Position numbers and translations under genes: made by a program
The notes under the pieces: generated by a model
The model's input: only the letters and a program-made list of their open reading frames with translations
Databases searched by the model: none
What the model was told of the DNA's origin: nothing
Shown: piece after piece, positions 3,011 to 20,952 of the stretch
Layout: the number at the start of each line of letters is the position of its first letter
Numbering within the stretch: position 1 is the first letter of the stretch
Origin: a virus
Length of the DNA: 64,000 bases
Virus record (IMG/VR): IMGVR_UViG_3300032782_000001
Coordinates: 180,404-244,403 of that record
Direction: 5' to 3' (one strand)

Positions 3011-3449
3011 CAATCAGAACTTGGAATCCCTGTCTCCAAGCGTGAACGATACATCTAGCCAATTCCGCACCAACCGGATTGGTTGTGGAGTATTCCCAGC
3101 ATTCAGGAAATAACCCGCCTTTTTGTTCACAATTTCGAGTGGTGCATTTAGATAAGTTTGCCATAACGCAGCAACCGATCTGTGAACAGATCGGTTTGTC
3201 AATTTTCATCATTGCTCCGAACGGAGGAGTCTTCAGAGCTTTTTCCAATCCTTTTGTATGCCCCAGTTTTGCCTCTTCCAATGTTGAATGACAAACTCTA
3301 GTACATTTATCTAGGATCCCTGATATGGATTCTTTAGCCGCAGCATCATGCAGTGCTTCTACAGATCCCTCGTCGAGCTCCGCGAAGTGCATTTTTTCTC
3401 CCGTACCCAATACGAGAGAGTAATCTACAGACTGAATAGAGGGTGTCAT
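2997..3449 (-). CDS. Hypothetical Cys/His-rich small protein, possibly zinc-binding
   Basis: 150-aa ORF fills the gap between dnaJ and the zinc-finger gene and has many Cys/His, but no recognised family. It overlaps the dnaJ 3' end by 14 nt on the opposite strand. Confidence 0.4.
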   Translation of the reverse strand: MTPSIQSVDYSLVLGTGEKMHFAELDEGSVEALHDAAAKESISGILDKCTRVCHSTLEEAKLGHTKGLEKALKTPPFGAMMKIDKPICSQIGCCVMANLSKCTTRNCEQKGGLFPECWEYSTTNPVGAELARCIVHAWRQGFQVLIVTAG

Positions 3450-4069
3450 GGGAGCAATTCGTCACCAACAGAATTCATGGCTTCACGGAGCTTTTTGAGA
3501 ACCTTAACCATTTCCGGATTTTGTTTACCACTGGCTTTATCTAGATCGTATTGAACCACGTCCAATACTCTGCAGAATTTCACAAAATCGGACAACGGAA
3601 CCTTGTCCCTAACTCTGGTCAATTTTGACTCCAGTAATGTTAAAGTTCGTGGGACATCTTCCCATTTGTCAGAAATGTAGTTAGCGCCTCGATCGACTGG
3701 CTCTGTGAATTCAGGAGCCTCGGGCCTACGAGGAACTCTAATCCTGAATCTGCGCTCGAGTTCCACGAGCGCATCCATGAATTTGAGTCCTTTGAATTTA
3801 GCATAGAAATTGATGCAGTCCCAGTTCTCTTTGCATTTGAAGCAACGAACAATGTCGTAGCTTCGTCCAGAACCAGCAGGGTAGAAGCGAGCAGATGGTT
3901 TATTGTCCGGCCCGTGGAACGGACATGAAATTTGCATCGGAGTGGACTTGTCAGGGACTTCTTGAATTCCACGTTCCATGAGAACATCGAATGTGGAATA
4001 AACATCTCTAACAGCGGCAACGCGTCTAGCCACCCATTCCTGAACAACAGTTTTACTTTCGTCCGCCAT
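3446..4069 (-). CDS. DnaG-type CHC2 zinc-finger protein; primase zinc-binding domain encoded as a stand-alone gene
   Basis: CPFHGPDNKPSARFYP...RCFKC matches the bacterial/phage primase CHC2 finger (CPFHxExTPSF...CFGC). No TOPRIM catalytic motifs are recognisable in this ORF. Confidence 0.7.
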   Translation of the reverse strand: MADESKTVVQEWVARRVAAVRDVYSTFDVLMERGIQEVPDKSTPMQISCPFHGPDNKPSARFYPAGSGRSYDIVRCFKCKENWDCINFYAKFKGLKFMDALVELERRFRIRVPRRPEAPEFTEPVDRGANYISDKWEDVPRTLTLLESKLTRVRDKVPLSDFVKFCRVLDVVQYDLDKASGKQNPEMVKVLKKLREAMNSVGDELLP

Positions 4070-4726
4070 TCATGCTTCCATTATCGTTTTTACATGAGCT
4101 TCTTTCCACATACGGATGATATCTTCTTCTTCTAGATGATTTACAAGGACTGAAAAGGCCTTCCGGACTTCTTGGACCGCGTCCTCTGCATCTAGACCCA
4201 TAGCTTTTTCAAAGCTAATCTTGCAAAGTCTCGTAGCTTCAACAATGCAAGGAGGAACACCAAGGAAGGCTTCCGCACCTTTTTCTTCTGCAAGTTTATC
4301 CAAACGTTCATACATCTTTCGGAACCAATTATCACGAGGTTTGCCTTTGGTAGGAAACTTCGGATTGACCGCACAAAGCGCAATGCCAGCTACGATAGCG
4401 GAGGTTGCTTTGCGCATATTCCTAGTCTTCATGACGATATGTAAGACAGGAGTGCTCTTTTCTTCCGGTTCAGCATGGAAGAAAATGTGACATCCATCAG
4501 CCAGCTTCTTGAAACGAATCATCAGAAGAGCCTTGCTGATGCCGTCGACTTTTTTGTGGAGAACGACGCTAGGTATTTTGTCGTTGTTGTAATGAGCTGC
4601 AGAATAACTAGGAACTTCCATTTTCAGCATCCAAGCGCTGATCGAGACTTCTGGAAGAATGATCCTAGTCTTTTGAACTTGATCCATCAGGATGACATTA
4701 CAGTGTCGACAATGCCAGTCGGGCAA
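4070..4726 (-). CDS. Hypothetical protein in the replication module
   Basis: 218-aa ORF immediately upstream of the zinc-finger gene. Its stop is adjacent to the zinc-finger gene start at 4069 (no gap), which suggests coupling. No family recognised. Confidence 0.5.
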   Translation of the reverse strand: MPDWHCRHCNVILMDQVQKTRIILPEVSISAWMLKMEVPSYSAAHYNNDKIPSVVLHKKVDGISKALLMIRFKKLADGCHIFFHAEPEEKSTPVLHIVMKTRNMRKATSAIVAGIALCAVNPKFPTKGKPRDNWFRKMYERLDKLAEEKGAEAFLGVPPCIVEATRLCKISFEKAMGLDAEDAVQEVRKAFSVLVNHLEEEDIIRMWKEAHVKTIMEA

Positions 4727-5074: not shown

Positions 5075-6604
5075 TCATGACGCAGCAGCCAACATCATGT
5101 CATCAATGCCAAGGGACATCGACTGCGCAGCCTTTACCAAGAGACGATCATTGTCGTAATCAATAAGTCCAGTCTCCATGGCTCGCATTCTTTTGGACTG
5201 CCAGATGATTTTCCCTACCATGCGGTCAAAGACCGGACCTCCACGATTCTTCAGATTTCCGAGGTAGAACTTACCCTCTTTTCGGAGTTGATCGTTCAGA
5301 TATGTGTAGGTGATGACGTCCGCAGCTTTCTCAATCTCATTTGCATATGCAATGGCCGCGTAGTCATACCTGCCGTCCGCTTTATCTGCTCGCAATTTCC
5401 CTTGCCGGTTGAGTTGGAAGAGCGCGAGGAGGGGGACGCCACGGCCGCGCGCAAAATTGCTGCAGAGCATTTGGCCCTCACGAACGACATTATTCACACT
5501 GACCACATAATCATTCGTCCTGTACTTCGGCTTTACGAGCGCAAGATAATCTACGACGAGTCCATCGCATCCATATTTCGCATGGAACATTTCGGCTTTG
5601 CGTCGAATGTCTTCGGATGACACAGCTTCAGGAGGATGCCAGATATACGGTTTGCCTTTACAATTTGCTTTGAAATCTTGAGCAATGATCTTCAATCGTT
5701 TCTTGTCTTCCGGAGAAAGTTCACCATCTCGGACCTTCCCAAAATCAAGACCGGTATAACACTGTTCAGGAGGTTTACCCGCTTTCCTGTCCTGTTCATA
5801 CCAATCCGTCACGAATTTTCCATTGGAAGAATGAATGACATAGATTTGATTGCGGAGATTCTTATATTTCATCTCCAAGATTGCATAGAAAATATTCTTG
5901 CCGTATAGATAACAATTGTTGTAAAGATAGTTCAGAGCAAGAGTGGTCTTGAGTTCTCCGCTGAATGCACAATGGATCCAATATTCACCCTGCCTATGTC
6001 CTTTACAAACTGAGTCCACTGGCTCGAGGCCGAATAACAACCGCCCTGCATATTGATTCGACTTCTCTTGAGCCTCATATTCATCGACTACTTCATCGGC
6101 ATCATCAGAGACTACTCCTTCGAGCTTCTCCCCGACCTCAATATGATAAATATGAGCCATCTTCTCATAGAGAAACGTGATGGCATCAGTGACTCCACGC
6201 ATGACCTTCTTGCCGTTAATGGGCTTCTCTAGATTCCTACCATGTTCGGCAATTGCAGAAGCATCTCTGCAAGCTAATGAGAAAGCTTTGATCTGCTGTT
6301 GTTCTTGCTCAGACTTGACAATAGCAAGATAATTTGTCCTGATGTAAGGCTGGGCCTTCCGGACTTCCTCTAGTCTATCGCAGACTTCAACGTCGTCCAA
6401 TTTCTCAAAGTATTCTTTAACCAGAGAGAAATCCGGCGGAGCGGACATCTGATCGTAGAATGTCTTGAGATAACCGACGATCTTTTTATCTTCTTCCGAT
6501 CGGAAGTCAAGGTTGTACTCTTGGAACCTATTCCAGTTATGGAAACAGTCTTCCCCTTCAGGAATATTGCCGACCTGGATTACGCTCCTTAAGATGCGTT
6601 CCAC
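5075..6604 (-). CDS. DnaB-family replicative helicase-like protein with a non-canonical P-loop
   Basis: C-terminal RecA-fold motifs match DnaB: FSGELKTTLALNYL (Walker A position), YAILEMK (H1a/SLEM), VVDYLALVKP (Walker B/IDYLQLM), ALFQLNRQGK (H4/SQLNR). The Walker A reads SGELKTT rather than GxGKT. Confidence 0.75.
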   Translation of the reverse strand: MERILRSVIQVGNIPEGEDCFHNWNRFQEYNLDFRSEEDKKIVGYLKTFYDQMSAPPDFSLVKEYFEKLDDVEVCDRLEEVRKAQPYIRTNYLAIVKSEQEQQQIKAFSLACRDASAIAEHGRNLEKPINGKKVMRGVTDAITFLYEKMAHIYHIEVGEKLEGVVSDDADEVVDEYEAQEKSNQYAGRLLFGLEPVDSVCKGHRQGEYWIHCAFSGELKTTLALNYLYNNCYLYGKNIFYAILEMKYKNLRNQIYVIHSSNGKFVTDWYEQDRKAGKPPEQCYTGLDFGKVRDGELSPEDKKRLKIIAQDFKANCKGKPYIWHPPEAVSSEDIRRKAEMFHAKYGCDGLVVDYLALVKPKYRTNDYVVSVNNVVREGQMLCSNFARGRGVPLLALFQLNRQGKLRADKADGRYDYAAIAYANEIEKAADVITYTYLNDQLRKEGKFYLGNLKNRGGPVFDRMVGKIIWQSKRMRAMETGLIDYDNDRLLVKAAQSMSLGIDDMMLAAAS

Positions 6605-7434
6605 TAGTGACTCCTCCTGAATTGTTTCTTCGGGCCAAGACCTGTTCCATATTCAGGCAATAAATCTCCTTCATCAGGTGCTGACTGAATTTTCGGGCGT
6701 GGTTTCTTTTCAGAATCACGAGCAGGTTCGCTTTGCACGAGCCTATTTTGAACCTTTGGACCGTTATCAGTCGTCGTCTGATGCGGTAATGGATCCGGAT
6801 TCAATGAACTGTCGAGAGTCATTCTAGGAAGAATTCTCGGAATTCGAACTGTTGGCATAGTCGACTTAATGTAATACATTAGTGATTCGGAGTAAGCTTT
6901 GCTGCTCTCCACGAAAGGCTTGTCTAGATCTGAAAACAACCATGTTGGTTTTTCTTGATCGATCCTATAACAAACAGCCTCTTCTAGAACTTCCGCTGCA
7001 GCTTTGTTCTTATATCCAATTTTATTCAACCAAATGATGGCCAGATCGGGAGGTTCCATCAGTTCTTGAAGACTGTTATAAATATCTCCAACCCGTTCAA
7101 TGACGTCCGATCCTTTTACTTGCCGAGCTTTTTTTCCCAGGTAGACGTCAAGAATTTCACTATCTGTAATGAGTTTAATGAATTTGGAGCGACTCGCGAT
7201 CATGGCTAGTTTAATGATAGCCCACATATCTGGAGCAGCCGCCAAAATGAACATGGACTTACTAACAGATCGGACTGGTATCTGTTTTACATGTTCATCT
7301 AGAACCTTCGCCATGACGATTTGAGCCGGCATGTCGCTTTTCCGTCTACGAAGGTAAGCACATTCACATTCAATGATACGTCCGTCTTTATCGACGTACC
7401 CGATCCCACCGCACATGCAAATTTGTGGGTCCAC
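6604..7434 (-). CDS. Hypothetical protein with N-terminal CxC...CxC zinc ribbon; candidate primase/helicase-loader partner
   Basis: N-terminus MDPQICMCGGIGYVDKDGRIIECEC. Positioned directly upstream of, and overlapping by 1 nt with, the DnaB-like gene. Confidence 0.5.
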   Translation of the reverse strand: MDPQICMCGGIGYVDKDGRIIECECAYLRRRKSDMPAQIVMAKVLDEHVKQIPVRSVSKSMFILAAAPDMWAIIKLAMIASRSKFIKLITDSEILDVYLGKKARQVKGSDVIERVGDIYNSLQELMEPPDLAIIWLNKIGYKNKAAAEVLEEAVCYRIDQEKPTWLFSDLDKPFVESSKAYSESLMYYIKSTMPTVRIPRILPRMTLDSSLNPDPLPHQTTTDNGPKVQNRLVQSEPARDSEKKPRPKIQSAPDEGDLLPEYGTGLGPKKQFRRSH

Positions 7435-7443
7435 GATTGCGAT

Positions 7444-8019
7444 TTACACCGGGTTTTTCCGAAGTTCAGCTCGAACTTGCATGATGGCTTCCCCAAGCCA
7501 ATTCTTTCCACGCCAGTGCTTGGGCTGAACAGCACGCGGGTCATCTTTTTGGAGTCCGATCCCCCAAATCTTATCATTCGGACTCGCTTCAACGATGGTG
7601 GCGCTTTCTGTCTCTTCTAAAATCTTTCGGAGGCCTTCATTCTGTGAAAATTTCGCCAAATTCCCTTCGAAGACAATTTGACGACAAACGCTCGTCCATT
7701 GTCGTTCATTAAATCCTCGGACTTGTCTACCGATTCTTTTCTGTTCGGCCGGGTCCTTGGATCGCATGATCAAAGATAAGCTGTGTTTATCGTCGAAAGT
7801 TCGGGCCTTACCGGCCATCATGAATTGTTCTGCACAGTTATATTGGCGTCCTTCAATGACAAAAGGGGAAGGATGCCATTGACTAAACGGCCCACTCCAA
7901 AAAAGAACAAATCCGCTCTCCATCTTCATTCCGTGGAAATCCATCTGGAGACCGTACGCTGAATCAGATATCCGATAGATCGATCGTATGAATAACAATG
8001 GTTTCAGCGTCATCTGCAC
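7444..8019 (-). CDS. NADAR (YbiA/DUF1768) domain protein
   Basis: FWSGPFSQWHPSPFVIEGRQYNCAEQFMMAGKARTFDD and ASPNDKIWGIGL match the conserved NADAR signature. The true start is probably an internal Met (about 7944 or 7923), which removes the 56-nt overlap with the SNF2 gene. Confidence 0.8.
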   Translation of the reverse strand: MQMTLKPLLFIRSIYRISDSAYGLQMDFHGMKMESGFVLFWSGPFSQWHPSPFVIEGRQYNCAEQFMMAGKARTFDDKHSLSLIMRSKDPAEQKRIGRQVRGFNERQWTSVCRQIVFEGNLAKFSQNEGLRKILEETESATIVEASPNDKIWGIGLQKDDPRAVQPKHWRGKNWLGEAIMQVRAELRKNPV

Positions 8020-10168
8020 GAATAGGCATATCGACTTCTACGGGAGTGTTTGCAACTTTCTTAGAAGGTTTTGACCGACGTGAGGCCGAAGCGATTTTCT
8101 TATTTACTTCATCGAGAAGTGTCTTCTTATCCTTATGTTCACCTCGAATGAGTTGGAAAATATCCGCAACATCATTCCCTTGTACGAACTGAAGTCCACC
8201 CTTTAATGATTCCCCTGCTACTTTATCGGCCAGGGCTTTCTTTCCCTTGAGAGTCTTGATGACATGATCGTCAATGGTCTTCCCTCCACCCTTCTTGACA
8301 GCAACAAGATGCGTTGCCACAACCATTAAATGCAAACTTCCAATGCGAATGGGCCGACCGGTGATTTGTACATAGTCCCCCCAACTCCATGGTGAATCCA
8401 CAAAAATGAGATGCTCGGCCGCATGGAGGTTGATAGACTCCGCTCCGGCCATCGTAATGAGGATCACATTTACGCCGGATTTCACGTCCTGGAAAACTTT
8501 CTTGGCCTTCTCTCGGTCGGAAGCTTTGTTTTCTTTCCCCGTAATACGAACGGTCCGAATCTTTTGTTTAGCAAGCGCCTTCTCGATGAGAGAAATCATT
8601 TTTTCGAATTTGGAAAAAATAATTACCTTGATCCCATCAAGTTCATCTTCGAGCAGCTCAAGTAATGCGTCGATCTTGCACGACGGACCATCAAAAGGAT
8701 TCCCATTCTCGTCAGCAATTAAGGCGGGCGAGTCTACTGCCTGTTGAACTAACGTCATCGCCTTAAGCATTTCAGACTCGTTTGCATCCGCTTGAGATCC
8801 AGTCTCCAAAAGACCGACTTCTGCCAGGTCATAAAGTTCTTGCTGAACATCTGAAAGCTCACATCGGAGTTCTCGAGAAACGAGTTGAGGAAGTTCCTTC
8901 GCAACCTCATGCTTCCGCCGACTAAGGTAGTACGGTTCAATAAGTTCTACGAATTTGTCGAGGTGTTTGTAACCCACGACAATCGGGACCTTCCGACCAC
9001 CGCCGATTGGTTGAAGTTTCACAACGCAAAAATCATCGTGAAATTTTTTAATAGTCGGCATTAATCCGGGTCGTACGATGCGAAACAGACTGAAGAACTC
9101 CATCAAACGGTTTTTTACTGCTGTAGCTGTCATACCGATAATTCGATCGCATTCAGATGAGATTTCAGCCACCGTTTGATGAATACGGCCTCGATGGTTT
9201 TTCAGTACATGTTGCTCATCCATGACGAGCATAAATTTCACTTCAGGCTGTCGATTTTTTAGTTCTCGAAGATATGAAAGGAATCCAGGGGTCTTCTTGG
9301 GAGGAGCTACAATGTCTCCCAGTCTCACGATTTCAGCATCCCCTGCTTTCTGGGAATCACGCAGAGTAATTAGCTTCTGAACAAATTCCATGTCTCCTTG
9401 CGTAAGCGGAGCAGGGAGATCTCGCGATGGGGCAGAGCCCGCCAGAACGGCTCGGAGATATTCACTGGCCTCATAAGGAAGTTCTCCGAATTTCCGACGA
9501 AATTGATCTCGCGTGGCGTCAAGAAGAACGGCCGATTCTTTCAGAGATTTCCGAAGATCTTTTAGTTGTTTGACAATGTTTTTATCCGGCTTTTGACTCT
9601 TGTCACGGACGACAGATTCCCCGGCGTCTCGAAGAACCATGTCGTAGGTCAGAATCAATAACTTCTTCTTAGAAGGATCATGGTTCAAGAAGAAATCTTC
9701 GTAGATAACCTGACGTTCGTAGGGTTCCCCGTCTACAGTCACTGCTTCCATGTTGTGCATGAATCGAGAAGTTTCATCTGCCCATTGGAATAATGCTGAT
9801 TTTTTCGTGAAGACGATAGGAACGTACTCTGGTTCCTTCATCCAAATGTAGCCGATGGTACTTAGAACTTGAAGCGTTTTACCAAGTCCTGTATCGTCTC
9901 CGAGAATCATCCGCTCCACCATGAGCATGTTCATGATGCCTTGAGCTTGATAATTCCTAATTTGGACAGGACGTTCTTCGGTCTCGTCGTGATACACTGA
10001 TTTAAGATATGGTGATGGCTTCAATTTCAAATCTTGAGCCGACCGAAGCTGACGGAGCTTCCCCAAGATCTCTTGCATATCTTCACATCTTACAGAGAGC
10101 CGATGGCATGATGGGCTCTTTCTAGAACCCATCCGGTATGAACCGGAACTTCCGATCTGCCATCGCAT
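7964..10168 (-). CDS. SNF2/Rad54-family DNA-dependent ATPase
   Basis: Motif I ILGDDTGLGKTLQV, motif II MLVMDEQHVLKN, and a helicase-C domain with motif VI QITGRPIRIGS. Confidence 0.9.
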   Translation of the reverse strand: MRWQIGSSGSYRMGSRKSPSCHRLSVRCEDMQEILGKLRQLRSAQDLKLKPSPYLKSVYHDETEERPVQIRNYQAQGIMNMLMVERMILGDDTGLGKTLQVLSTIGYIWMKEPEYVPIVFTKKSALFQWADETSRFMHNMEAVTVDGEPYERQVIYEDFFLNHDPSKKKLLILTYDMVLRDAGESVVRDKSQKPDKNIVKQLKDLRKSLKESAVLLDATRDQFRRKFGELPYEASEYLRAVLAGSAPSRDLPAPLTQGDMEFVQKLITLRDSQKAGDAEIVRLGDIVAPPKKTPGFLSYLRELKNRQPEVKFMLVMDEQHVLKNHRGRIHQTVAEISSECDRIIGMTATAVKNRLMEFFSLFRIVRPGLMPTIKKFHDDFCVVKLQPIGGGRKVPIVVGYKHLDKFVELIEPYYLSRRKHEVAKELPQLVSRELRCELSDVQQELYDLAEVGLLETGSQADANESEMLKAMTLVQQAVDSPALIADENGNPFDGPSCKIDALLELLEDELDGIKVIIFSKFEKMISLIEKALAKQKIRTVRITGKENKASDREKAKKVFQDVKSGVNVILITMAGAESINLHAAEHLIFVDSPWSWGDYVQITGRPIRIGSLHLMVVATHLVAVKKGGGKTIDDHVIKTLKGKKALADKVAGESLKGGLQFVQGNDVADIFQLIRGEHKDKKTLLDEVNKKIASASRRSKPSKKVANTPVEVDMPIRADDAETIVIHTIDLSDI

Positions 10169-10656
10169 CCGTCTTGATCGTCACGTCCGTACCTACTTTG
10201 GGCCTTTCTACAGCCGGATGTAGTTCTTGGATCAGTAACTTCAAGAAGGATCCTGTCGGTCAGATTCAGAATGTCATCCAAATCGTAGAGACAATCATCT
10301 CTGTCGGTACTCTTGTCTTCGGCCAAGTCAAGCAAGCGCTTCCGACTGATGCTCAAGCCAAGGCTCAAGCCGATTGGGATGAAGCACTGTTGAAGGTGAA
10401 CTCCGCCGTAGCGGCACTCCAATCAGCAGTAAAAGTAGCAGCTGACGCCAATCAGCCTAATCCGGATTTGAGCAAGCTCGTGACGGATCTCATGGCAGCA
10501 ATCGATGCTCTCCACGCTGTTGTAAACACGTACAGTGCAAAACCTTCGACTGGTAAATTGACGGCTGCAGTGAAGCCGAAGGGATATGATTTATTCGTAC
10601 AGCAGATTGCGCTTCTAAAAAGCCAATCGCCAATGATCTCGTCTTCGACGAAGTAA
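10138..10656 (+). CDS. Secreted/lipoprotein-like small protein with helical mature domain
   Basis: N-terminal hydrophobic segment ending GLSTAGC (lipobox-like), followed by a predicted alpha-helical Ala/Lys/Gln-rich region. This is the only plus-strand gene besides dnaJ in the first 63 kb. Confidence 0.55.
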   Translation: MNRNFRSAIASVLIVTSVPTLGLSTAGCSSWISNFKKDPVGQIQNVIQIVETIISVGTLVFGQVKQALPTDAQAKAQADWDEALLKVNSAVAALQSAVKVAADANQPNPDLSKLVTDLMAAIDALHAVVNTYSAKPSTGKLTAAVKPKGYDLFVQQIALLKSQSPMISSSTK

Positions 10657-10661
10657 TTGCC

Positions 10662-11636
10662 CTATGGGCAACACATCACGTCCTTGCCTGAAATGACCTG
10701 TTTCAGGTTTTGGCATCCAGGGTTGGACTGCGTGGTGTGAACGCAGATTCCTGCATTGCACTTATTTTCCAGACAATCGCTGTCGTATAGACATCCCTGT
10801 CCAACATCACACCTTGCCGGGTTGACTCCACCGCAGTCGATGTCGGTTTCGTAGGTGTCTTGAGTATTGTTGGCGTACGAAGCCGGGCAGGCATATCCAT
10901 TTCCGGCCGTCCCACAGAATCCGTCAAACCCGGAGTCACGGTAGCATCCTTCGCAAATGCCCACGTGTGCCCAATTCGGCGGAGGATTGGCGTAAGGGAC
11001 GTACGGAGGATCGCCAGAAGTGCAGTATTGCAACTCGATGACGAAAACTCCATCAACCAAACGTTGGCACTGCCCATTTGAGTTGGGCTGCGGAACGCAG
11101 TTCTGCGTATGACCGCAGTCATCGATGTAGCTGCCACAATTGTTGGATTGGCAGACTACGTTCGGAGTCTGAGTCGGAACGCACTGATGGCACTGATGAT
11201 CAGCCCCGCAAGTATCCGAACCTGAACACGGGTTGCATTGTACGGTGTTGCCGCACCCGTCGTCCCAAGCCCCGCAATACGCAGGACTCGGGCACCCATC
11301 GGGCACACATCCCGTTCCGCTGGAACCGCCAACTCCGGAACCGCCACCGCCACCGCCACCGCCACCGCCACCGCCACTTCCGGAGGACACGCCGGTACCA
11401 CTTCCCGAATTACTGGCGCCACCAGAAGAACCCGTAGAACCCGTGGAGTTCGCAGATGAAGCCATAGCTCCACCAGAAGAGTCCGAATTACCTCCGCCAG
11501 CATTGCCTCCGCCCGACCCAGGAGACCCTGACCCGGCGGACGTGGGCTTGGTTTGGAACAAGTCACTCGTTCCAGGATCACCACACCCGAGGACCACCGA
11601 AACCAAAATGGAAACCAAAAACAAACCCTGATTCAT
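10662..11636 (-). CDS. Lipoprotein with long Gly/Ser linker and Cys-rich C-terminal domain
   Basis: Signal peptide MNQGLFLVSILVSVVLGC (lipobox VLGC), an ~100-aa G/S-rich low-complexity linker including G12, then ~40 Cys in CG/CxxC-type patterns. Confidence 0.7.
   Translation of the reverse strand: MNQGLFLVSILVSVVLGCGDPGTSDLFQTKPTSAGSGSPGSGGGNAGGGNSDSSGGAMASSANSTGSTGSSGGASNSGSGTGVSSGSGGGGGGGGGGGGSGVGGSSGTGCVPDGCPSPAYCGAWDDGCGNTVQCNPCSGSDTCGADHQCHQCVPTQTPNVVCQSNNCGSYIDDCGHTQNCVPQPNSNGQCQRLVDGVFVIELQYCTSGDPPYVPYANPPPNWAHVGICEGCYRDSGFDGFCGTAGNGYACPASYANNTQDTYETDIDCGGVNPARCDVGQGCLYDSDCLENKCNAGICVHTTQSNPGCQNLKQVISGKDVMCCP
10687..10711 (+). terminator. Candidate rho-independent terminator for the plus-strand lipoprotein gene, embedded in the 3' codons of the convergent minus-strand gene
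   Basis: cctgaaa-tgacctg-tttcagg (7-bp stem) followed by tttt, 31 nt after the stop at 10656. Confidence 0.4.
11339..11374. repeat. Perfect (ccgcca)x6 hexanucleotide microsatellite encoding poly-Gly in the lipoprotein linker
   Basis: Six exact tandem copies at 11339-11374; in-frame, so copy-number change alters linker length and not reading frame. Confidence 0.85.
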
Positions 11637-11687: not shown

Positions 11688-14600
11688 TTACGGAGTTTCC
11701 AAAGTAGCAATGTTATGGAGCATTGCGTTACCGGAAGTAAATACTCGGTCTCCGATCACTGTAATGCTGTAACCAGTCTCGCACCCGCGGAGACCGAGAG
11801 TGCTCACACTCGATGGAGTCGTCAATGCTACCTGAAGACTTCCGGCATCAAGCTGATTGACTTTAATGTGGCCTCCAGTATTACCATTCCGAACGTCATT
11901 CCCCATGATCAGTCCATGAGGTTTGTTATTGGCAATGCCTCCAGCAGGAATTTCGAATTGAATCTGAACCGTCGACGTGTTGTTTCCGTAACAAAGATTG
12001 TCCAGAATTTCGAATGGAGCGCTATCGCCTGATCCAACCAAACTCATGTAAATACCGGGGACATTGAAGAATTGTCCGCAATTCGTGATGAGATTTCCGT
12101 TGATAGACACGTTAAACCAGTTTCCAATTCCAGCAGAAGCAGCAGCAATTCCGCTGTTGGAACAGTCGATGATATGATTATTGAGAAATCGAATCTGAGA
12201 TACGGCGGAATCTGCAACGAACATATTGAAGCCCATGCCAACTCTGGCTTCGCTGACATGACAATTTTCAATTGTCAAGTTACTAGCAAAATTGGAGGAA
12301 CCGGTGTATAGCGAACCGGTAGCCACGGATGGGATTAAGAATCCCCAAGCTTGGGTTTGAGCCGGTGCGAATCCGGGTTGACGGTATAGCTGAATAACTG
12401 AATTAATGATGTTGATTCCGGCCAAAGGACTGGGACTAAACAACGTGGAGTCCCAAGGTTCCAAAATCACAATTGCAGATTGTGCCCAGTCTCCGGTCGA
12501 TGCCGTGGTCCCCGTCATACGCAAACCATCAATGTTAGCGTAGAAGACGTTCGGAACACCGCTGGCAACACGAGGTCGTAGCCTCAACCTGTGGAAGGGT
12601 TGGCCTCCAATCCCACCCAATACGTAATCCCGAATTGAAACATCCTTCATCACGAGTTCAGACCACCGCACAATAAGATCACCCGAAGCACCAAGCTGAG
12701 GGCAACCTTGGAATTGGACTCCATTCATTTCAATATGGAACGCATTGATTGCAAATGCTGACCATGCGTTGGCGTTGATGACATCACCAACTGCACCAAG
12801 CCACCAAAGCTTGGAATCAGCAGTCATGGTTCCGGAAACTGTAGCTCCTGGAGCCCCCCTGTCGAAGCCCATAGTCACATTCCGAATGAACACACCGCCC
12901 TGACCATCACCATAAGACCCAGGCTGGATCAGGTCGGCGCCTCCGACATCCGAAATAGTGAATGGATTGAAGAAAGTCGGGACTGCCGTGCAGAACCACC
13001 GACCTCCTTCAATTTCAAGTCTGTGAACGGCTAGATATCCAGTTCCAGCATTCTGACCATTTGTCTGAGGTTGCAAATGGATGAGGATGGAATTGATGCC
13101 ACCATTAACATTTGCGACGACTTGGCAGTTCCTGTAGAGAAGCCGACTTACTGCTACCCCGGTCAAGGCAGTGGCATCAGATCCGGCGGGGTCAACATCA
13201 ATGACTCCGCAATTTCCTACCAAGTTCCCGCCAACACCCGTAGTCGACATTAAATTGAACGAGCATCGTTCGTATTCGATGTCACCAATAAGGGTGAGAG
13301 GAACGACAGCACTGGCTGAAACGAGCTTCAACGCCGGCTGATTTTGACCAACGTTGAAGGTACAGTCTAACGCCTTGAAAGGGCCATGGACGAGCCCATT
13401 ACCCATCGTCATGGTAATGCAAGGTTTGTCGGCACTAGCATTACCAGTATTGAATACACAACGGATGAGATTATATGCACCGCCATCCGTAATTTGCAAG
13501 ACGGTGCCTGAAAATAGAACGTCTTCAGCGACCAAAATGACGTTTTTGTTGACATCTACACGAGCGAAGGGGGGACCAGCATGACTAATAGTAAGATTCT
13601 TGAGCCAAACATTGGCTCCTGATACTCCTGTCCCGAATTGGATGGCGGGAGTCACGCCATCCGTCACATTAATGACGACGCCGTCCCTATGCATTCCTTC
13701 AATGACAACGCCTTTACCATCAGCGATAGAAATAGCACCAACACCCGTATTGATATTGTAAATGCCGCTCTTGACTTGGATTCGAATATGATTGAATGGG
13801 GTGCTGGAATTCCAGAAAGCAATAGCTTGCTGGATAGCATTTACACCGTTGAAATCACCAAAGCTAATGTTCCCGTCACCGCATGTGACAGTCCATTTTG
13901 CGTTAACACGCTTAAATAGCGTCGGAGTAGGATCTGGGTCAGCATTATCTAGAACGTGGAGATTTTCAGCATTATCCGAACCTACGGAATTCGTAAGTTG
14001 AACCGGATCGACGGTGTTTTGATCTCGGAACAGAAGAGGTCCGGTAAGACATGCAAGAGCAGTTTTGGATCCGAGTTCTGCAGACCACTCAGTGTCGGCA
14101 ACGTCGAAGACGCTAAGACGGACAGCGTGTTGATCCCAGTTACTTTCGTTCCATGTACCCGCAGATAGACGACCACGGGTAGCAACGTCCATGAAATGTT
14201 GGCTTCCGGAATCATTCCCTGGAGCCAATGAGAGTTTCGTAGCGGCCAATGAAGCAACATCTTTAGCGTACGCCGTTCCATTCCATTTGGCGTTGACCGT
14301 AAAGATCATTCTTCCACTGTCGTCTGTATACAGACGAAATGCAACATCTGTGGGAATGGCAGGAGCAGGAATCGCAATGGATTCCCAAATCAGGGTATAC
14401 TGACCAGACGAGACCGAATGGGGAGTCAGAATTCTGGGAGCAAGCGCAACCGCAGAAGGAGTTACATCAGCACCGAGCTGAATACTGGCAGCTTGAATGA
14501 ATCGTTGGAAAATTTCAAGGACCCCCGCAGGGATTTTGCCTTGATTGTTCAGACCGGCAAATCTACCGATGTTTTGGATACCATCATTAGGGTTGGCAGG

Positions 14601-16238
14601 AATTTCCTGCCGGTTGGAGAAGAAATCTTCGGAAGTCTTTTCTTCGTTCGCGGGGACCTCTCCAAATTCCATTACTTCTGGAATGAGAATGTCCAGACCC
14701 GTATCGAAATCATTAGATGGAGGGGTGGCGGGTTCTTCTCCAACCGAGTTAGAGTATACCCCCGCCGTTAGACCCATCTTGGCTAGGGGTGTCCCACTCA
14801 GATTACTAACTGAAATCGTGCTAGTTAAATCTGGGTTCCTATAAAGTCCAGACAGTGTGATTTCAGCTCCACCATAAAGGGTGGCAAGAACACTCCCGTG
14901 GTACTCACCAGGAATGATCCCGAGAGTATTGAGTGCACTGAGATTCTGGTTAGGATTGAGTTGTAGAATGACGGAGGACACAGTCCCGTCAATACTGGTG
15001 CTCCGAATTTCTACAAACTTCTGACCGTTAATTGTAACGGCAGAACATGTTCCTTGAGCCGCTTGAGAAGCCGCAGCAATGGCTGCAGTAACTGTTGCCG
15101 CTACGTCCTCTGCGGTAGTCTCCGGACCCAGATTAATGACGATCGGAGCGTTATTGTTGAGAATCAGTTGAAAGTTACTAGTATTGGTAAAGTTATATGG
15201 TTCGGGTACATTAGATGTGACAATAGCGCGTCCAGCGCCCGTTCCGAAGCCGTCCGTAGCGTTATGCCATGATTGATTGATGGCATTAATGACATCTTGA
15301 ACGGAAGTAATGGTCCCGAAAGCTGTGTCTACTGTAACTGAGTAGCTGGTATCAGGATCAGCTACGACAATTCGAAGAACATCGCCGGGGCCCAGAGATG
15401 TGAAATTGCTCTGAGTAGTGGTGATGGAAGCGGGTACGGGTCCCGTAGTGAACCAAGAAAGCTGCCAAGTTGGAGTGTATGCCTGATGAGGATCGTAAGG
15501 CTTCTGCGGACTCCAACGTAACCTAGCGTAAACTGGCTGTGCGGGTCCAATATTGGGAACGAGAGTCCTGAACCCTGTCGACAACATCTGCAAAGGAGCT
15601 GTGAGCAGGATTTGTTCACGGGGACTGTAACGAGCTTGGACTGTTCCTCCCCTACCATCAGGAGTATTTGAATTAATCCCTCGTCGAGGCCCGGAAAACC
15701 CCGTAGCAGTGGCCGTGGTTACAAGTCCATAACCAAGAATCTGAACAATTCCGGGGGTAACATCAGTAATAGTAACAAACGCATCATCGCCAGTAGTGAA
15801 ATTACTACCATGAGCGCTTCGAATTTGAAGCCGTCCGTTATTATTACTAGCAGCATTTACAGTGACGCCGAATCCCGCAAGAGTAGCATTGATACGTGCT
15901 GCAATGCGGGAGGCTGTCAAAACCGAAATAGATGAAAGAGTTACAAAATCACCAGCCTGAATCGTGACAACAATGGGATTACCACTATTGACATTGGGCA
16001 TGGTAATGGAAAATTGATTTCCAGTTCCAGCTCCAAAGAATGGTTCGTTGTTCAGACCAGTGAGGTAAGCACCAACATCCAGAGCAGCACCGTCAACAAT
16101 TTGACTGACGGTGTCGTTCAGGAAGCCGTTATACTGGCCTCCAGTGAGATTCCAGACCGGCCCCGTGTGGAACGGAACGGTATGGCGTGAAAACCTAAGC
16201 TGAAGGTCATCAATTTGTTGCGCGCGAGGCCTGGTCAT
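11688..16238 (-). CDS. Giant tail fibre/tailspike protein with C-terminal right-handed parallel beta-helix (pectate-lyase-like) domain
   Basis: 1516 aa. The C-terminal ~700 aa carry repeated beta-helix rungs (NNHIIDCSNSGIAA..., INGNLITNCG..., GNDVRNGNTGGHI..., many N/G/S/T-rich turns). SD GGGAG 4 nt upstream of the ATG. Confidence 0.7.
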   Translation of the reverse strand: MTRPRAQQIDDLQLRFSRHTVPFHTGPVWNLTGGQYNGFLNDTVSQIVDGAALDVGAYLTGLNNEPFFGAGTGNQFSITMPNVNSGNPIVVTIQAGDFVTLSSISVLTASRIAARINATLAGFGVTVNAASNNNGRLQIRSAHGSNFTTGDDAFVTITDVTPGIVQILGYGLVTTATATGFSGPRRGINSNTPDGRGGTVQARYSPREQILLTAPLQMLSTGFRTLVPNIGPAQPVYARLRWSPQKPYDPHQAYTPTWQLSWFTTGPVPASITTTQSNFTSLGPGDVLRIVVADPDTSYSVTVDTAFGTITSVQDVINAINQSWHNATDGFGTGAGRAIVTSNVPEPYNFTNTSNFQLILNNNAPIVINLGPETTAEDVAATVTAAIAAASQAAQGTCSAVTINGQKFVEIRSTSIDGTVSSVILQLNPNQNLSALNTLGIIPGEYHGSVLATLYGGAEITLSGLYRNPDLTSTISVSNLSGTPLAKMGLTAGVYSNSVGEEPATPPSNDFDTGLDILIPEVMEFGEVPANEEKTSEDFFSNRQEIPANPNDGIQNIGRFAGLNNQGKIPAGVLEIFQRFIQAASIQLGADVTPSAVALAPRILTPHSVSSGQYTLIWESIAIPAPAIPTDVAFRLYTDDSGRMIFTVNAKWNGTAYAKDVASLAATKLSLAPGNDSGSQHFMDVATRGRLSAGTWNESNWDQHAVRLSVFDVADTEWSAELGSKTALACLTGPLLFRDQNTVDPVQLTNSVGSDNAENLHVLDNADPDPTPTLFKRVNAKWTVTCGDGNISFGDFNGVNAIQQAIAFWNSSTPFNHIRIQVKSGIYNINTGVGAISIADGKGVVIEGMHRDGVVINVTDGVTPAIQFGTGVSGANVWLKNLTISHAGPPFARVDVNKNVILVAEDVLFSGTVLQITDGGAYNLIRCVFNTGNASADKPCITMTMGNGLVHGPFKALDCTFNVGQNQPALKLVSASAVVPLTLIGDIEYERCSFNLMSTTGVGGNLVGNCGVIDVDPAGSDATALTGVAVSRLLYRNCQVVANVNGGINSILIHLQPQTNGQNAGTGYLAVHRLEIEGGRWFCTAVPTFFNPFTISDVGGADLIQPGSYGDGQGGVFIRNVTMGFDRGAPGATVSGTMTADSKLWWLGAVGDVINANAWSAFAINAFHIEMNGVQFQGCPQLGASGDLIVRWSELVMKDVSIRDYVLGGIGGQPFHRLRLRPRVASGVPNVFYANIDGLRMTGTTASTGDWAQSAIVILEPWDSTLFSPSPLAGINIINSVIQLYRQPGFAPAQTQAWGFLIPSVATGSLYTGSSNFASNLTIENCHVSEARVGMGFNMFVADSAVSQIRFLNNHIIDCSNSGIAAASAGIGNWFNVSINGNLITNCGQFFNVPGIYMSLVGSGDSAPFEILDNLCYGNNTSTVQIQFEIPAGGIANNKPHGLIMGNDVRNGNTGGHIKVNQLDAGSLQVALTTPSSVSTLGLRGCETGYSITVIGDRVFTSGNAMLHNIATLETP

Positions 16239-16293: not shown

Positions 16294-19200
16294 TCACAGG
16301 AGTACGTACCAGACTTCCACCACGTCAGTGACGATGAGGTTTGGAGCAGTTGGAGGATCTGGGATATACGTCAAGTCTTGATTTGTGATTCCATCAACGG
16401 TGTAATTCAGTCCGTATGCTTGCTTGACACCATTAATCCACATAATAACTGTAGTCGGATCAACGGGCCTAAGACTGAGAGAAAACGCAGTCTGACCATT
16501 GGTAGTCACAGGTAGAGTTTCCTGCTTCACCGAAGTCAAACTAATGTCACTGGACCCAAAGAAAATCGGATTATCGTAAATATTGTTTACGAATACCGGG
16601 GGCTCCGTCGGAATTTGAGTCAGATCAATGTTCCGACGACGCTTCTCCAAGGGACGCCCCCACACTCTGAACCTGTCCACAGCCGTATAACCTTCATTCG
16701 TCCCATTAGCTGAATGGACGACATCAGTATCACGGAAATAAGACGGCATTGCGTGAGTCACGACTATCATCTGCAATTCGAACCCAGCGTGGACTTCAAC
16801 AGAAGAAACCACTTCCGGATGGGATTTCACTAAATACGCCACACCAGCGAGAACCGAACCCGCTTCAATGTTGGGTCGAGCTCGAGGAAGCTTGGCAGAA
16901 ATTACTCCGCCTGGCCACGGCCCGGTAACAGACCAAGCCGCTCCACCACGAGTGGTCTTGAAGTTGACGACATCTGAGAAACTGTTCGTTCCGTCTACCT
17001 TTATGATGGACTCTCCGCCCACACCAGATGTGCCTGATGCATGACCACAGAGGAATTCAGTTCCCTCCCAAGTGGACTGCCCGGAGCCGATCGGAGGATT
17101 GGAGGCCTGGAAAGCAGGGAATGAAAGAGTTCCCATGGGGATGATTCCAACACCGCTTGTACTGCGGGTTTGATAGAGGGACTTACCGACGAAGTCCTTA
17201 TCGCGGAACCAAATTCCGAGCGGAAGATTGACCGTGCATCCTGCAAATTCAGGATGAACATCGCGGTCAAATACCTCAGAAATAGCCAAACGAACCGTAG
17301 AAGGCCTGGCAACAAAACCCCCATCTGGTACAACTACGGGGAATCTTGGGGTGGACCAATCTTCATAACCGGTCCTATTGGCAGAGTACCTGCGGTTCAA
17401 ATCTACAATTGTTCCCGCATAATCAGGCGGCTGGCTGGGATTTTCTACCGTATTGAGCAGAGGAATTGGATTAGATCCTGAAAGCCTTCCGGTGCCAAGA
17501 GAAGTGACAAAATTCCTGGACGCCAGGACTTCAAATCCAGCTTTATTATTGAACGCGAGCGTGTTTACAGGTCCAACAGGATTTGCCTGAATACTATTAG
17601 ACTCGGACAACGCCAGCGGTCCTAACCGATAAACGTCGTCGGAATAAGCGGATTGCGTACCAAAGATATCTCCTTGATACGGAGACCGACTGTAATAAAC
17701 GGTCAGTTCGTTATTGACCGAGTCCACAGACATGGGTGCAGGAGTAATGATCCCGATCTTATTGTCGCCAGTGGAAGTAAAAGTGTTAATCGGAGCTTCA
17801 ATGCTTCCACCACCACTGGTTCTGGCTCCAAGGATCCGACCGTTGGTTTGCAAAAACCCGCGATCGAATCCGAAGAGAGTGCACTCAACCAGGAATTCGG
17901 AGTTATCAAATGTGGTTCCAGATGGAGCCTTCGAGAAATCGATAACATCAGCATTCAAGACGAACGTAATGTCACCGTTGTCTCCAACTTCCAATAGGAA
18001 CGTTGGACCATCAAAGTCATCTTTGAGAAGATTCGTATCTGTTCCGGCTCCTCCTACAAATTTGCGATCAGTGCTAAAAGGAGAAGCCGCTGGCACAGTG
18101 GGATAGGGGCCAGGACCCGTCGTATTCCTCTTGTAAACCCCCGTAATACGAGCAGGACCATAAAATGGAGGGAACTGAATCCCACGGAAAATGCCGCCGC
18201 CTGAACCTGGAATTCGCTTATTTGAGTATTTTTGCCCGAATACTGAAGGCAGTGTTCCAGTTCCATAAGTTTCTCCAACTACAGGAGTTACAATATAATA
18301 ACCAGCCGTACTTGGATAGCTGACCAGGTTCCTATTCCAGTCGGAGCTGTCTACACCTCCAAATGGACCTTCCTTCGACATCATGATGCAGTTAATTCCT
18401 GAAGGAAACACTGCATTCGTAACTGGAACGATAGGTACATGATGCAGACCAGGCCTCGGAAGGAAGGCCATGTCGATTTCAGCGTACCTAGTTGAAACGC
18501 CTACGAAGAACAGGTTGAGAGGGTCTACTACCGTATGAACTGTAGTATTCCCCGCTTGATTCAAATGAGGCATAGCCCCTTGGAAAGTGGGAACAACCCC
18601 ATACCAATTGAGCTGGGAACCATCTCTAACAAGGAGCGCAGGAACTAAAACATTCCTGTAAGGAGCCGCATAGACCGTCTTAGACCCTGGGTCGATCATG
18701 ACCTCAGAAGTTTTAGCAACATCTCTGTTGATCCCGGTTTGAACGTACGGGGAATCACTTAGATATGTAGGAATCATGCGATTCCGATCTGAAAGACCGG
18801 GACGGAGGATAACTTTCGAAGAGTTCGTCGGACTGCCACGATAATGAACAGTGTGTACGTAATCTGGCCTATGAGATAACCCTCGGCCTGCTCCGTACAC
18901 AACTGCAAACTGCACATGCATGACAGTTTTAGTTGCTAAATCTGTGCTGGGAGGCGTCGGAACTGCATCCGTGAACTCTTGTAGTAATGATCCAGGAGTA
19001 TTAGGGCCGAATACCCCAATAATATCAATTACAAGATTCCCAGAACCATCTAATGAAACATTCAGTCCTTGACCATGCTTCAGAATCCTTGCACCCAAAG
19101 TAACCAAATTCGGATTGGTAGAAGTGGGAGAAGTCATTAAAGGAGGCGCAGTGGGAACCCCACCATTGGGGTCCGTCGTCATTCCTTCAAATCTGATTAG

Positions 19201-20952
19201 AACAGCGTCAGGATCCTCGGACGGTAGTACGAATCGGACCTGATCTGAATCAGAAACCGGCATACCTACTTTGAATTCATCCAGACCAATAGTGATTTGA
19301 TCGCCGACATACCACCAAGGCGTCGAACCGTTGAGTCGGAAGCCGGGACCACGACCCGGAGCTGCCGCAGTCCATTCCACATTGACAGTATATGGGCTGA
19401 CTGCTACTTCAATGCTGTCATCAATGGCATTGGAATTAGATGGAACTTGAACCGGGACGTCATACCTTTCAGTAACAACGGCATCCGAGAACATTCTCCG
19501 ATTACCATTGGGTCCATCTAGCCTTGTCAGACCTCCGACAAAGATAGTCCCATCAGTAATCCGATCTCCGTAGAAAACAACAGTGCCAGCAGAATTGGTT
19601 GATCCGTACCTCTTCCACGCCGTACGAAGGTTCCCCTTCATGAGCTGTGTTAGAGCAGTCTCCAACATTGCTTCATAATCGAATTTATCGGCTACAGAAT
19701 GGCGAAGGTCGAGAATGTCGGTGGAAGTGATCTGGTCCGCGAAAAGTCCATCCGGCCGAACAGTGTACAGGATTACTGGAGTCCCTTGCTTATGAGATCG
19801 GACTGTGGTTTGAAGCTGACCACGATCCATTGTAACAACGAAGGATGTAGGACTCGTTTGTGTGATGTTATTAACACGGACAATTTCTTGGTTGATCTTA
19901 AAATATGCTTCACCGAAATTGTTCATCGTGGAGAGCACAGTTCCGGAAATGCTCGTCAACGTGAACTGAACGTCAGTCTCTACGATGTCATTCGGCAACA
20001 GGACTGTGTTAGTGTAGACGGTTGCACCATCACGAGTCGTGGCCTTACTATTCCGGTTGAAGGCACCTGCAAGGTTGCCTACATCTGAAAAACCCGCCCC
20101 ATTCCTTCGGAACACAACGCAAATAGGGATGGCATACGAATATCCATCCACAGTCCCGAAAGTAGTCGGGTCTCCCGACCCAGCCCTCCAAAGACCAGGA
20201 TCTCCCAAGAGCTGCCGCATGTTGGTGAAAGGAACAGCACTAGGGACACTCAGGAGGCCTTGAGCAAATACGAGCGATGGATCGAATCCATCTGGATTCT
20301 GGGCAATGTTGACATTGGTGACAACACGAATTCTATACTGAACCTGAACCCTCTTCGTGGTTTCAAAATTGACATCAGGATCAATCAAATCATCAGGGAG
20401 GAAAGAGAACCCGCCTTCCACATTCCCGAACTTGTAAATGAAACCACGTTGAGGTTTGCCAGGCGCAACGCCAGGAGGCGCCGGATCAACATCGATACGC
20501 GCGAGCCAAGCTTCCAGGAACACAAATTCCGCTTGATTCCCGCCTGTTGAAGTATTCGGTGGGTTTAGTTGAATTCGATTCCAACTATCAACGTTATCCG
20601 CCGCAAGAGGCGGCTGTCCAGTGCGAGTCCCCGTGACAGGAACCGGCCAACCATTTACAATAGCCCATGTAACATCACGAATCTCTTGAGGAGAATTCCT
20701 GCCAAAGTAAAATAGATTAGAATAACTTTGTTGAGTAATGAAGTCTCCCCGAGGGGATGCTTCATTCATGAGCCAACCCGAAGCGACTCGAGATCTAACT
20801 TCCTCCGCTCGGGACTCAAGGTCGATCAGAGCAGCGAGGTTGAGCTCGGAGTCAAGAGGGGGCTTATTTCCCTGGAAGACAACTGCAGCAAGTTGCTTAT
20901 CCCGGTCATCAATGAACCGGGTGACTCCAGGGCCTAGAGGGTTCGGCGGCAT
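16294..20952 (-). CDS. Giant structural (fibre/baseplate) protein; N-terminal ~450 aa paralogous to the 882-aa protein
   Basis: 1552 aa. Shared blocks with 22839-25487: VVFQGNKP, EFVFLEAW, DDLIDP...RVQVQYRIRVV, GTVDGYSYAIPICVVFRRN, RPDGLFADQITSTDILDLR. Confidence 0.75.
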   Translation of the reverse strand: MPPNPLGPGVTRFIDDRDKQLAAVVFQGNKPPLDSELNLAALIDLESRAEEVRSRVASGWLMNEASPRGDFITQQSYSNLFYFGRNSPQEIRDVTWAIVNGWPVPVTGTRTGQPPLAADNVDSWNRIQLNPPNTSTGGNQAEFVFLEAWLARIDVDPAPPGVAPGKPQRGFIYKFGNVEGGFSFLPDDLIDPDVNFETTKRVQVQYRIRVVTNVNIAQNPDGFDPSLVFAQGLLSVPSAVPFTNMRQLLGDPGLWRAGSGDPTTFGTVDGYSYAIPICVVFRRNGAGFSDVGNLAGAFNRNSKATTRDGATVYTNTVLLPNDIVETDVQFTLTSISGTVLSTMNNFGEAYFKINQEIVRVNNITQTSPTSFVVTMDRGQLQTTVRSHKQGTPVILYTVRPDGLFADQITSTDILDLRHSVADKFDYEAMLETALTQLMKGNLRTAWKRYGSTNSAGTVVFYGDRITDGTIFVGGLTRLDGPNGNRRMFSDAVVTERYDVPVQVPSNSNAIDDSIEVAVSPYTVNVEWTAAAPGRGPGFRLNGSTPWWYVGDQITIGLDEFKVGMPVSDSDQVRFVLPSEDPDAVLIRFEGMTTDPNGGVPTAPPLMTSPTSTNPNLVTLGARILKHGQGLNVSLDGSGNLVIDIIGVFGPNTPGSLLQEFTDAVPTPPSTDLATKTVMHVQFAVVYGAGRGLSHRPDYVHTVHYRGSPTNSSKVILRPGLSDRNRMIPTYLSDSPYVQTGINRDVAKTSEVMIDPGSKTVYAAPYRNVLVPALLVRDGSQLNWYGVVPTFQGAMPHLNQAGNTTVHTVVDPLNLFFVGVSTRYAEIDMAFLPRPGLHHVPIVPVTNAVFPSGINCIMMSKEGPFGGVDSSDWNRNLVSYPSTAGYYIVTPVVGETYGTGTLPSVFGQKYSNKRIPGSGGGIFRGIQFPPFYGPARITGVYKRNTTGPGPYPTVPAASPFSTDRKFVGGAGTDTNLLKDDFDGPTFLLEVGDNGDITFVLNADVIDFSKAPSGTTFDNSEFLVECTLFGFDRGFLQTNGRILGARTSGGGSIEAPINTFTSTGDNKIGIITPAPMSVDSVNNELTVYYSRSPYQGDIFGTQSAYSDDVYRLGPLALSESNSIQANPVGPVNTLAFNNKAGFEVLASRNFVTSLGTGRLSGSNPIPLLNTVENPSQPPDYAGTIVDLNRRYSANRTGYEDWSTPRFPVVVPDGGFVARPSTVRLAISEVFDRDVHPEFAGCTVNLPLGIWFRDKDFVGKSLYQTRSTSGVGIIPMGTLSFPAFQASNPPIGSGQSTWEGTEFLCGHASGTSGVGGESIIKVDGTNSFSDVVNFKTTRGGAAWSVTGPWPGGVISAKLPRARPNIEAGSVLAGVAYLVKSHPEVVSSVEVHAGFELQMIVVTHAMPSYFRDTDVVHSANGTNEGYTAVDRFRVWGRPLEKRRRNIDLTQIPTEPPVFVNNIYDNPIFFGSSDISLTSVKQETLPVTTNGQTAFSLSLRPVDPTTVIMWINGVKQAYGLNYTVDGITNQDLTYIPDPPTAPNLIVTDVVEVWYVLL

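Follow-up and report, generated by a model that had tools for sequence, protein, structure and literature searches.

Does a NADAR gene that follows an SNF2 ATPase gene in a phage genome work together with that ATPase, or does it serve the phage on its own? The question is raised by a 64,000-nucleotide stretch of DNA (positions 180,404 to 244,403 of the IMG/VR virus record IMGVR_UViG_3300032782_000001; this whole stretch is called the window below), in which a NADAR gene (7444..7944, minus strand) lies directly downstream of an SNF2 gene on the same strand. The sequence-only reading of the locus had noticed this adjacency, and it is confirmed by matches of the two proteins to PF08719 (E = 1.5e-52) and SNF2-rel_dom (E = 7e-33). 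That reading saw in the two genes a hint of a DNA-repair or anti-defence unit that strips protein or ADP-ribose adducts from phage DNA. We think it fairly probable that the NADAR is instead an active enzyme of the Glu type that acts alone as a counter-defence factor and was acquired as an accessory insertion in a replication operon. Its adjacency to the SNF2 gene is incidental and lineage-restricted.

The NADAR protein has a YbiA-like fold and is a predicted ADP-ribosylglycohydrolase. The match to PF08719 (NADAR/DUF1768; 178.6 bits, with the cutoff at 35.1) spans residues 18-162 of 166, and the protein is thus a minimal core without the N-terminal extension of DarG1-type NADARs; it also matches phrog_1017 (1.5e-49) and has an isoelectric point of 9.4. 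Among PDB sequences, phmmer found 8BAU, the Phytophthora nicotianae NADAR (PnNADAR) with ADP-ribose bound (2e-17, 66.6 bits), and 2B3W, Escherichia coli YbiA (6e-11, 45.5 bits). An AlphaFold2 (AF2) model built on an alignment of 34 homologues has a predicted local distance difference test score of 95.7 and a predicted template modelling score of 0.89, and in Foldseek it aligned with 8BAU (template modelling [TM] score 0.87, E = 3.4e-11) and YbiA (TM score 0.76, E = 1.4e-8). Neither a PDB profile search nor Foldseek, at E values up to 10, returned any NADAR chains other than 8BAU and 2B3W. The window protein has the same fold as these two and all ADP-ribose-binding residues in common with them, and its model shares the minimal-core size and N-terminal beta-hairpins of YbiA. 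Unlike the phage-encoded window NADAR, both are cellular proteins; PnNADAR differs further in its additional N-terminal and internal extensions (PMC11543638), and YbiA in a documented activity on riboflavin intermediates.

To compare the active sites, we used published residue lists (PMC11543638, PMC12945103). In PnNADAR, ADP-ribose is contacted by E43, K50, K75, R79, W89, R93, E125, D130 and W133 (PMC11543638). The equivalents in the window protein, numbered on the 166-residue form, are E39, K46, K69, R73, W83, E119, D124 and W127; for R93 there is an Arg one residue off in the alignment. S21, of the conserved Ser/Glu/Lys triad, is present as well. No variation was seen among the 34 homologues at S21, E39, K46, K69, W83, E119, D124 or W127, and conservation of R73 is 90% or more. 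Mikolcevic et al. (PMC12945103) found the Glu that corresponds to E119 to be essential. An alignment of the catalytic residues, whose loss would count against the sequence-only reading, therefore found all of them present, and judged by its residues and predicted fold the NADAR gene looks real and catalytically intact. The residue at the position of PnNADAR E125 differs between groups: the YbiA subfamily has Glu, DarG1-type NADARs have Asp and T4-type phage NADARs have His (PMC11543638); the window protein has Glu119 there and is thus Glu-type.

Phage NADARs that reverse DNA ADP-ribosylation by DarT1 have already been demonstrated by experiment, namely AdfN of T4, Bas32 and Bas60 (PMC11825919), and are established by bioinformatics too. 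The window gene, which comes from an uncultured phage, is thus a further example and ranks as an ordinary new case of the AdfN-like class of phage NADARs. AdfN-Bas60, the product of gene bas60_0111 of Escherichia phage PaulScherrer (the Bas60 identity was confirmed via the bas60_ locus tags), is 33% identical to it by tblastn (E = 1e-16) and 35% identical in the alignment. In E. coli it neutralises DarT1 and, with no need for another phage factor, rescues RB69, T5 and Bas25 from DarTG1 (PMC11825919, Johannesman et al. 2025). The archaeal-like AdfN-Bas32 likewise requires no phage partner, whereas AdfN-T4 requires a phage (T-even) factor for full activity (PMC11825919). Both the window NADAR and AdfN-Bas60 are phage-encoded orphans without a DarT neighbour (Pfam scans found no cognate DarT for the former), and in both, the Ser/Glu/Lys triad is present and a VEASP.D motif holds the catalytic Glu. 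They differ in two insertions of approximately 10 and 7 residues in the Bas60 protein, in a Tyr in Bas60 where the window protein has W127, and in genomic setting, as bas60_0111 is found among small genes of unknown function and the window NADAR in a replication operon; the activity of Bas60 is demonstrated, whereas that of the window protein is predicted. From the family and fold match, the kept residues and the homology to AdfN-Bas60, we infer the enzymatic activity and substrate of the window protein, and an anti-ADP-ribosylation role appears well supported by this homology. The sequence-only suggestion of a likely phage counter-defence factor thus stands, as a prediction.

Glu-type NADAR/YbiA enzymes strip ADP-ribose from cytosine as well as from guanine, whether in DNA or in RNA, whereas DarG1-type and T4-type NADARs remove it from guanine only (PMC12945103). 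The window enzyme would accordingly be expected to hydrolyse the N-glycosidic bond that joins ADP-ribose to guanine (at guanine N2), and possibly to cytosine too, on the single-stranded DNA (ssDNA) or RNA of the phage. The modification reversed would be that of host DarT1-type or pierisin/ScARP-like ADP-ribosyltransferases (ARTs), and its removal would let replication proceed. Co-expression with replisome genes would supply the NADAR when ssDNA is exposed, and SNF2 would have no required or indicated part in its action.

Comparison with the other characterised classes places the window protein outside both. It belongs to one superfamily with DarG1 (BC4488-type, the antitoxin of DarTG1) and T4 gp30.3/AdfN-T4 and is expected to share their chemistry, in which ADP-ribose is taken off guanine. 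Membership in the DarG1/BC4488 class was rejected on three features: the window NADAR has Glu119 where DarG1 has Asp, it does not have the N-terminal beta-beta-alpha DNA-binding extension, and no ART gene is found nearby, unlike the adjacent DarT1 of DarG1. Nor does it belong to the T4-type AdfN (gp30.3 clade), which has His in place of Glu119. The window protein shares its PHROG, phrog_1017, with NADARs of Xp12-like and PaMx28-like phages, Herelleviridae and further cultured phages; in Xp12 and PaMx28, unlike the window, the gene is part of a small divergent cassette within the structural module with no SNF2 nearby. A tblastn search of cultured phages matched 731 records, with Xp12-like and PaMx28-like phages giving the highest identities (50-55%), and the gene was seen in at least 590 viral contigs as well. 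With PADLOC, the sole match was a component of a candidate system, PDC-M42C; this result and the PDB profile search, with 8BAU and 2B3W as its only NADAR chains, also counted against DarG1-type membership.

Some observations weigh against a counter-defence enzyme acting on nucleic acids. E. coli YbiA, which is also a minimal-core and Glu-type protein, hydrolyses ADP-ribosylated guanine (G-ADPr) in vitro yet gives no rescue from DarT1 in vivo (PMC11125620), so that intact residues are no guarantee of anti-DarT1 function. The window protein also clears the cutoff (169.3 vs 73.7 bits) of TIGR02464, the NCBIfam equivalog-domain model for 'riboflavin biosynthesis intermediates N-glycosidase'. No ART, Macro, ADP-ribosylhydrolase (ARH), NAMPT or Sir2 gene was found in the window by Pfam (open reading frames [ORFs] of at least 90 amino acids [aa] taken as genes), and tblastn with proteins of the NAD-related islands found at other NADAR loci gave no match to the window, to L016 and L020, or to the further relatives covered.

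The TIGR02464 score raises the possibility that the gene encodes a housekeeping YbiA N-glycosidase that destroys reactive intermediates of the riboflavin pathway, as a form of metabolite damage control. The window protein belongs to YbiA/TIGR02464 at the level of sequence, by the profile and Glu119, and the YbiA-type Glu signature is accompanied by a YbiA-like topology. The surroundings and the distribution of the gene speak for a different function: no riboflavin genes, either as ribA/ribD fusions or as neighbours, are found nearby, and its presence in so many viral contigs and phage records fits a role in conflicts better. Among PDB sequences, moreover, the match is stronger to PnNADAR, which is active on G-ADPr, than to YbiA (66.6 vs 45.5 bits), and YbiA itself hydrolyses both G-ADPr and ADP-ribosylated cytosine (PMC11125620, PMC12945103). 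We consider a riboflavin-related function highly improbable. Many deposited phage genomes label this NADAR as 'GTP cyclohydrolase (II)', a misleading name that was probably carried over from RibA/RibD-fused NADAR domains.

A second alternative emerges from the neighbourhoods of NADAR genes elsewhere. We clustered the ORFs within 3 kb of NADAR in approximately 90 loci and found the recurrent neighbours to be NAMPT (24 loci), a NUDIX/NMNAT-like protein (16), dCMP deaminase (15), Sir2 (14), an SLOG/YspA-like protein (14), HAD_SAK_2 (13) and a Macro domain protein (12). On a 296-kb contig, Macro, ADP_ribosyl_GH and a NADAR (a 56-59% identical homologue) lie within 4 kb (L033:1773-5510), and on another contig NADAR is found near RtcB and RNase HII. 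These surroundings accord with the name of the family and with a NADAR role in NAD+/ADP-ribose conflicts, and the loci (L041-L120 and L033) look like phage NAD+/ADP-ribose counter-defence islands. NADAR could then be a helper in NAD+/ADP-ribose metabolism and not a de-modifier of nucleic acids; it might, for instance, cleave ADP-ribose in small molecules or ribosyl N-glycosides in step with phage NAD+ salvage, countering immunity that depletes NAD+ or signals through ADP-ribose, and the physiological targets of orphan NADARs may indeed include small molecules (PMC11543638). At the locus studied here, however, no such NAD genes are near NADAR, be it in the window, the identical source-contig segment or L020, and the gene is part of an operon for DNA replication. 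As every NADAR tested so far acts on base-linked ADP-ribose in nucleic acids (PMC11125620, PMC12945103), we regard a small-molecule role as unlikely for the window gene, and prefer an enzyme that acts on modified bases.

If the NADAR works on nucleic acids, the remaining question is whether it does so with SNF2. The two genes belong to a tightly packed operon on the minus strand in the order SNF2, NADAR, p276, DnaB, primase. We retrieved related loci through SNF2 and DnaB and mapped homologues by tblastn; the window and the related contigs make up 12 lineages sharing the SNF2-p276-DnaB module. SNF2 homologues were found at 52-62% identity in 11 related contigs, and p276 homologues, at 32-44% identity, lie between SNF2 and DnaB in every relative, the conserved order being SNF2, p276, DnaB, primase, p150, DnaJ. 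In L003, L004, L018/L021, L023, L024, L025, L026 and L028, the p276 homologue starts approximately 10-45 nucleotides (nt) past the SNF2 stop, leaving no room for a further gene, and in L121, the 485-kb uncultured phage LR745208.1, it directly follows SNF2 with no NADAR between. In L019/L022 the SNF2/p276 junction is occupied by a 291-aa LAGLIDADG homing endonuclease (L019:5272-6147). The one relative with NADAR in the identical slot is the closest, L020 (Ga0326727_10002736; DnaB 72% and SNF2 62% identical to the window), where the NADAR is 62.6% identical and separated from SNF2 by 2 nt. NADAR at this junction is thus confined to 2 of the 12 lineages, the window and L020, and ten related contigs keep the module without it there. 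On the 393-kb contig IMGVR_UViG_3300012980_000004 (L004, L008), a NADAR with 50% identity is present, approximately 180 kb from the SNF2 of that contig.

The reverse comparison gave a similar picture. NADAR loci were retrieved with the protein and with a family alignment. We assembled 98 other NADAR-bearing loci (90 from IMG/VR; Xp12, PaMx28 and Bas60; and five metagenomic contigs) and found an SNF2 homologue within 5-7 kb of NADAR in none of them. The search was sensitive enough, as the same SNF2 query picked up SNF2 proteins with 25% identity from 178 diverse phages; the closest SNF2 of a cultured phage, at 32% identity, was that of Tunturiibacter phage Tunturi_5, an Acidobacteriota jumbo phage. 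A conserved SNF2-NADAR synteny was considered and rejected, as the tblastn mapping confines the adjacency to the window and L020. The conserved core is SNF2-p276-DnaB, and SNF2 is a core replication-module gene independent of NADAR.

The proposal of a dedicated anti-defence or repair unit, in which SNF2 translocates, remodels stalled forks or strips adducts and recruits or potentiates NADAR, has to be judged by these distributions. The two genes share a strand and lie next to each other, 19 nt apart in the window and 2 nt apart in L020, and the adjacency has been kept across approximately 38% protein divergence; precedents can be seen in the dependence of T4 AdfN on a phage factor (PMC11825919) and in E. 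coli ybiA, which reportedly shares an operon under LexA control with the DinG helicase (PMC11125620). Set against this are the ten related contigs, including the 485-kb phage, that keep SNF2-p276-DnaB with no NADAR there, the endonuclease in that junction in L019, the distance between the two genes on IMGVR_UViG_3300012980_000004, the count of 0/98 and the fact that AdfN-Bas60, a Glu-type enzyme, and AdfN-Bas32 work without a phage partner (PMC11825919). We consider such a unit very unlikely, and the functional pair of the sequence-only reading is not upheld; nor does anything indicate that SNF2 strips adducts. A narrower variant is a fork-coupled module, in which SNF2 (or p276/DnaB) would localise or potentiate NADAR on ssDNA at forks stalled by ADP-ribosyl-guanine. 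The odds are similarly long for this variant; if true, it would be a candidate for the identity of the 'potentiating phage factor' reportedly needed by T4 AdfN. The locus also gives a word of caution, as a single adjacency is poor ground for inferring functional pairing.

The preferred explanation, an accessory gene inserted in a replication operon, allows the age of the insertion to be considered. Between the window and L020, the nonsynonymous divergence (dN) is 0.35 for NADAR, 0.31 for SNF2, 0.21 for DnaB and 0.45 for p276, and the synonymous divergence (dS) of NADAR is saturated; the GC content of NADAR, overall and at third codon positions (GC3), matches that of the adjoining genes. As both base composition and the divergence from L020 resemble those of the neighbours, recent horizontal transfer was rejected and the insertion appears to be old. 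The simplest history is a single insertion in the common ancestor of the window phage and L020, which would have gained NADAR at the SNF2/p276 junction, followed by vertical inheritance under purifying selection. A Glu-type NADAR can thus become fixed within a core replication operon, and the SNF2/p276 and p276/DnaB junctions stand out as hot spots at which accessory and selfish genes insert.

Selfish elements are scattered through the replication operon of the relatives, and further sequence features were seen. In L020 an HNH endonuclease lies between p276 and DnaB (L020:6435-7001). Gaps of approximately 1.4-2 kb interrupt the DnaB match in several relatives (the DnaB regions of L025, L026, L027, L028 and L121), and one of approximately 1.4 kb interrupts the SNF2 match of L121, which suggests inteins or inserted endonuclease genes. 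The SNF2 homologues all end in an acidic tail of the form (L/I/F)D(L/F)SD(I/L/V) or close variants (...IDLSDI in the window, 7964-7985), which may be a protein-interaction motif. The LAGLIDADG endonuclease of L019 ends in ...VDFSDI, as though the insertion had carried a duplicate of the SNF2 3' end.

The gene boundaries at the junction can be read in detail. The maximal ORFs overlap, NADAR extending over 7444..8019 and SNF2 over 7964..10168 on the minus strand. SNF2 ends with the stop codon TGA (7966-7964) and NADAR has its first ATG at 7944, giving a spacer of 19 nt (7945..7963, minus strand, read from the sequence); the approximately 17 nt given in the sequence-only reading was essentially right. 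Alternative NADAR start codons are the ATGs at 7929 and 7923, and the protein has 166 aa from ATG 7944 and 159 aa from ATG 7923. In an identical public contig of 83.5 kb, Logan SRR8881007, the gene calls start SNF2 at ATG 10078 (704 aa) and NADAR at ATG 7923 (159 aa). The SNF2 homologues of L019 and L020 begin at the position equivalent to 10078, which is almost certainly the true start; the extent to 10168 in the sequence-only reading holds for the maximal ORF but not for the gene. A scan for promoters and terminators around NADAR found nothing above the shuffled background and no site in the 19-nt spacer, and SNF2 and NADAR are therefore probably co-transcribed.

The placement of the locus in a replication region is borne out by the genes around it. 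SNF2 (7964..10078, minus strand) is a 704-aa ATPase/helicase with matches to SNF2-rel_dom (7e-33), Helicase_C (1.7e-18) and phrog_62 'DNA helicase' (6.8e-77); a Walker A motif (GDDTGLGKT) and a DEQH box accompany the Helicase_C domain. Downstream, p276 (6604..7434, minus) starts 9 nt past the NADAR stop. It has no Pfam, PHROG or NCBIfam match and carries a zinc-ribbon-like, Cys-rich CxC...CxC motif at its N-terminus; the protein is lineage-specific and might have a helicase-loader-like role. It is followed by a DnaB-like replicative helicase (5075..6604, minus; DnaB_C 1.6e-16, phrog_19 2.1e-28), by p218 (4070-4726, minus), without a family match, and by a primase zinc-ribbon protein (3446..4069, minus), assigned by Zn_ribbon_DnaG on the identical public contig and by PHROG DNA primase matches. 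The primase zinc-ribbon gene marks the continuation of one replication operon, and beyond it the Logan contig encodes DnaJ, PolA and dCTP deaminase.

On the other side of SNF2, p172 (10138-10656, plus strand) is divergent from it, with an apparent lipoprotein signal at its start (…LSTAGC) and no family match. The next gene, p324 (10662-11636, minus), encodes a Gly/Ser-rich and then Cys-rich protein, also without a family match, and the Logan contig breaks inside its low-complexity region. Four very large minus-strand ORFs have no Pfam match: 11688-16238 (1516 aa), 16294-20952 (1552 aa), 33522-40010 (2162 aa) and 54807-60065 (1752 aa). Homologues of p1516 adjoin the replication module in the relatives.

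Phage markers of the window are baseplate J, the collagen-repeat fibre, homing endonucleases, DnaB and primase. The remainder of the window is phage structural DNA with baseplate J, a collagen-repeat protein, Big_5 and two GIY-YIG endonucleases. The latter are free-standing homing endonuclease genes on the minus strand within the structural block (26333-27253 and 42509-43366), one of them with a NUMOD3 motif. The collagen-repeat protein (43394-46147, minus) has 917 aa with at least eight stretches of collagen triple-helix repeats (E = 5e-70) and is probably a fibre protein. The segment at 44-46 kb, in which it lies, has a GC content of up to 0.60, compared with a window average of approximately 0.47.

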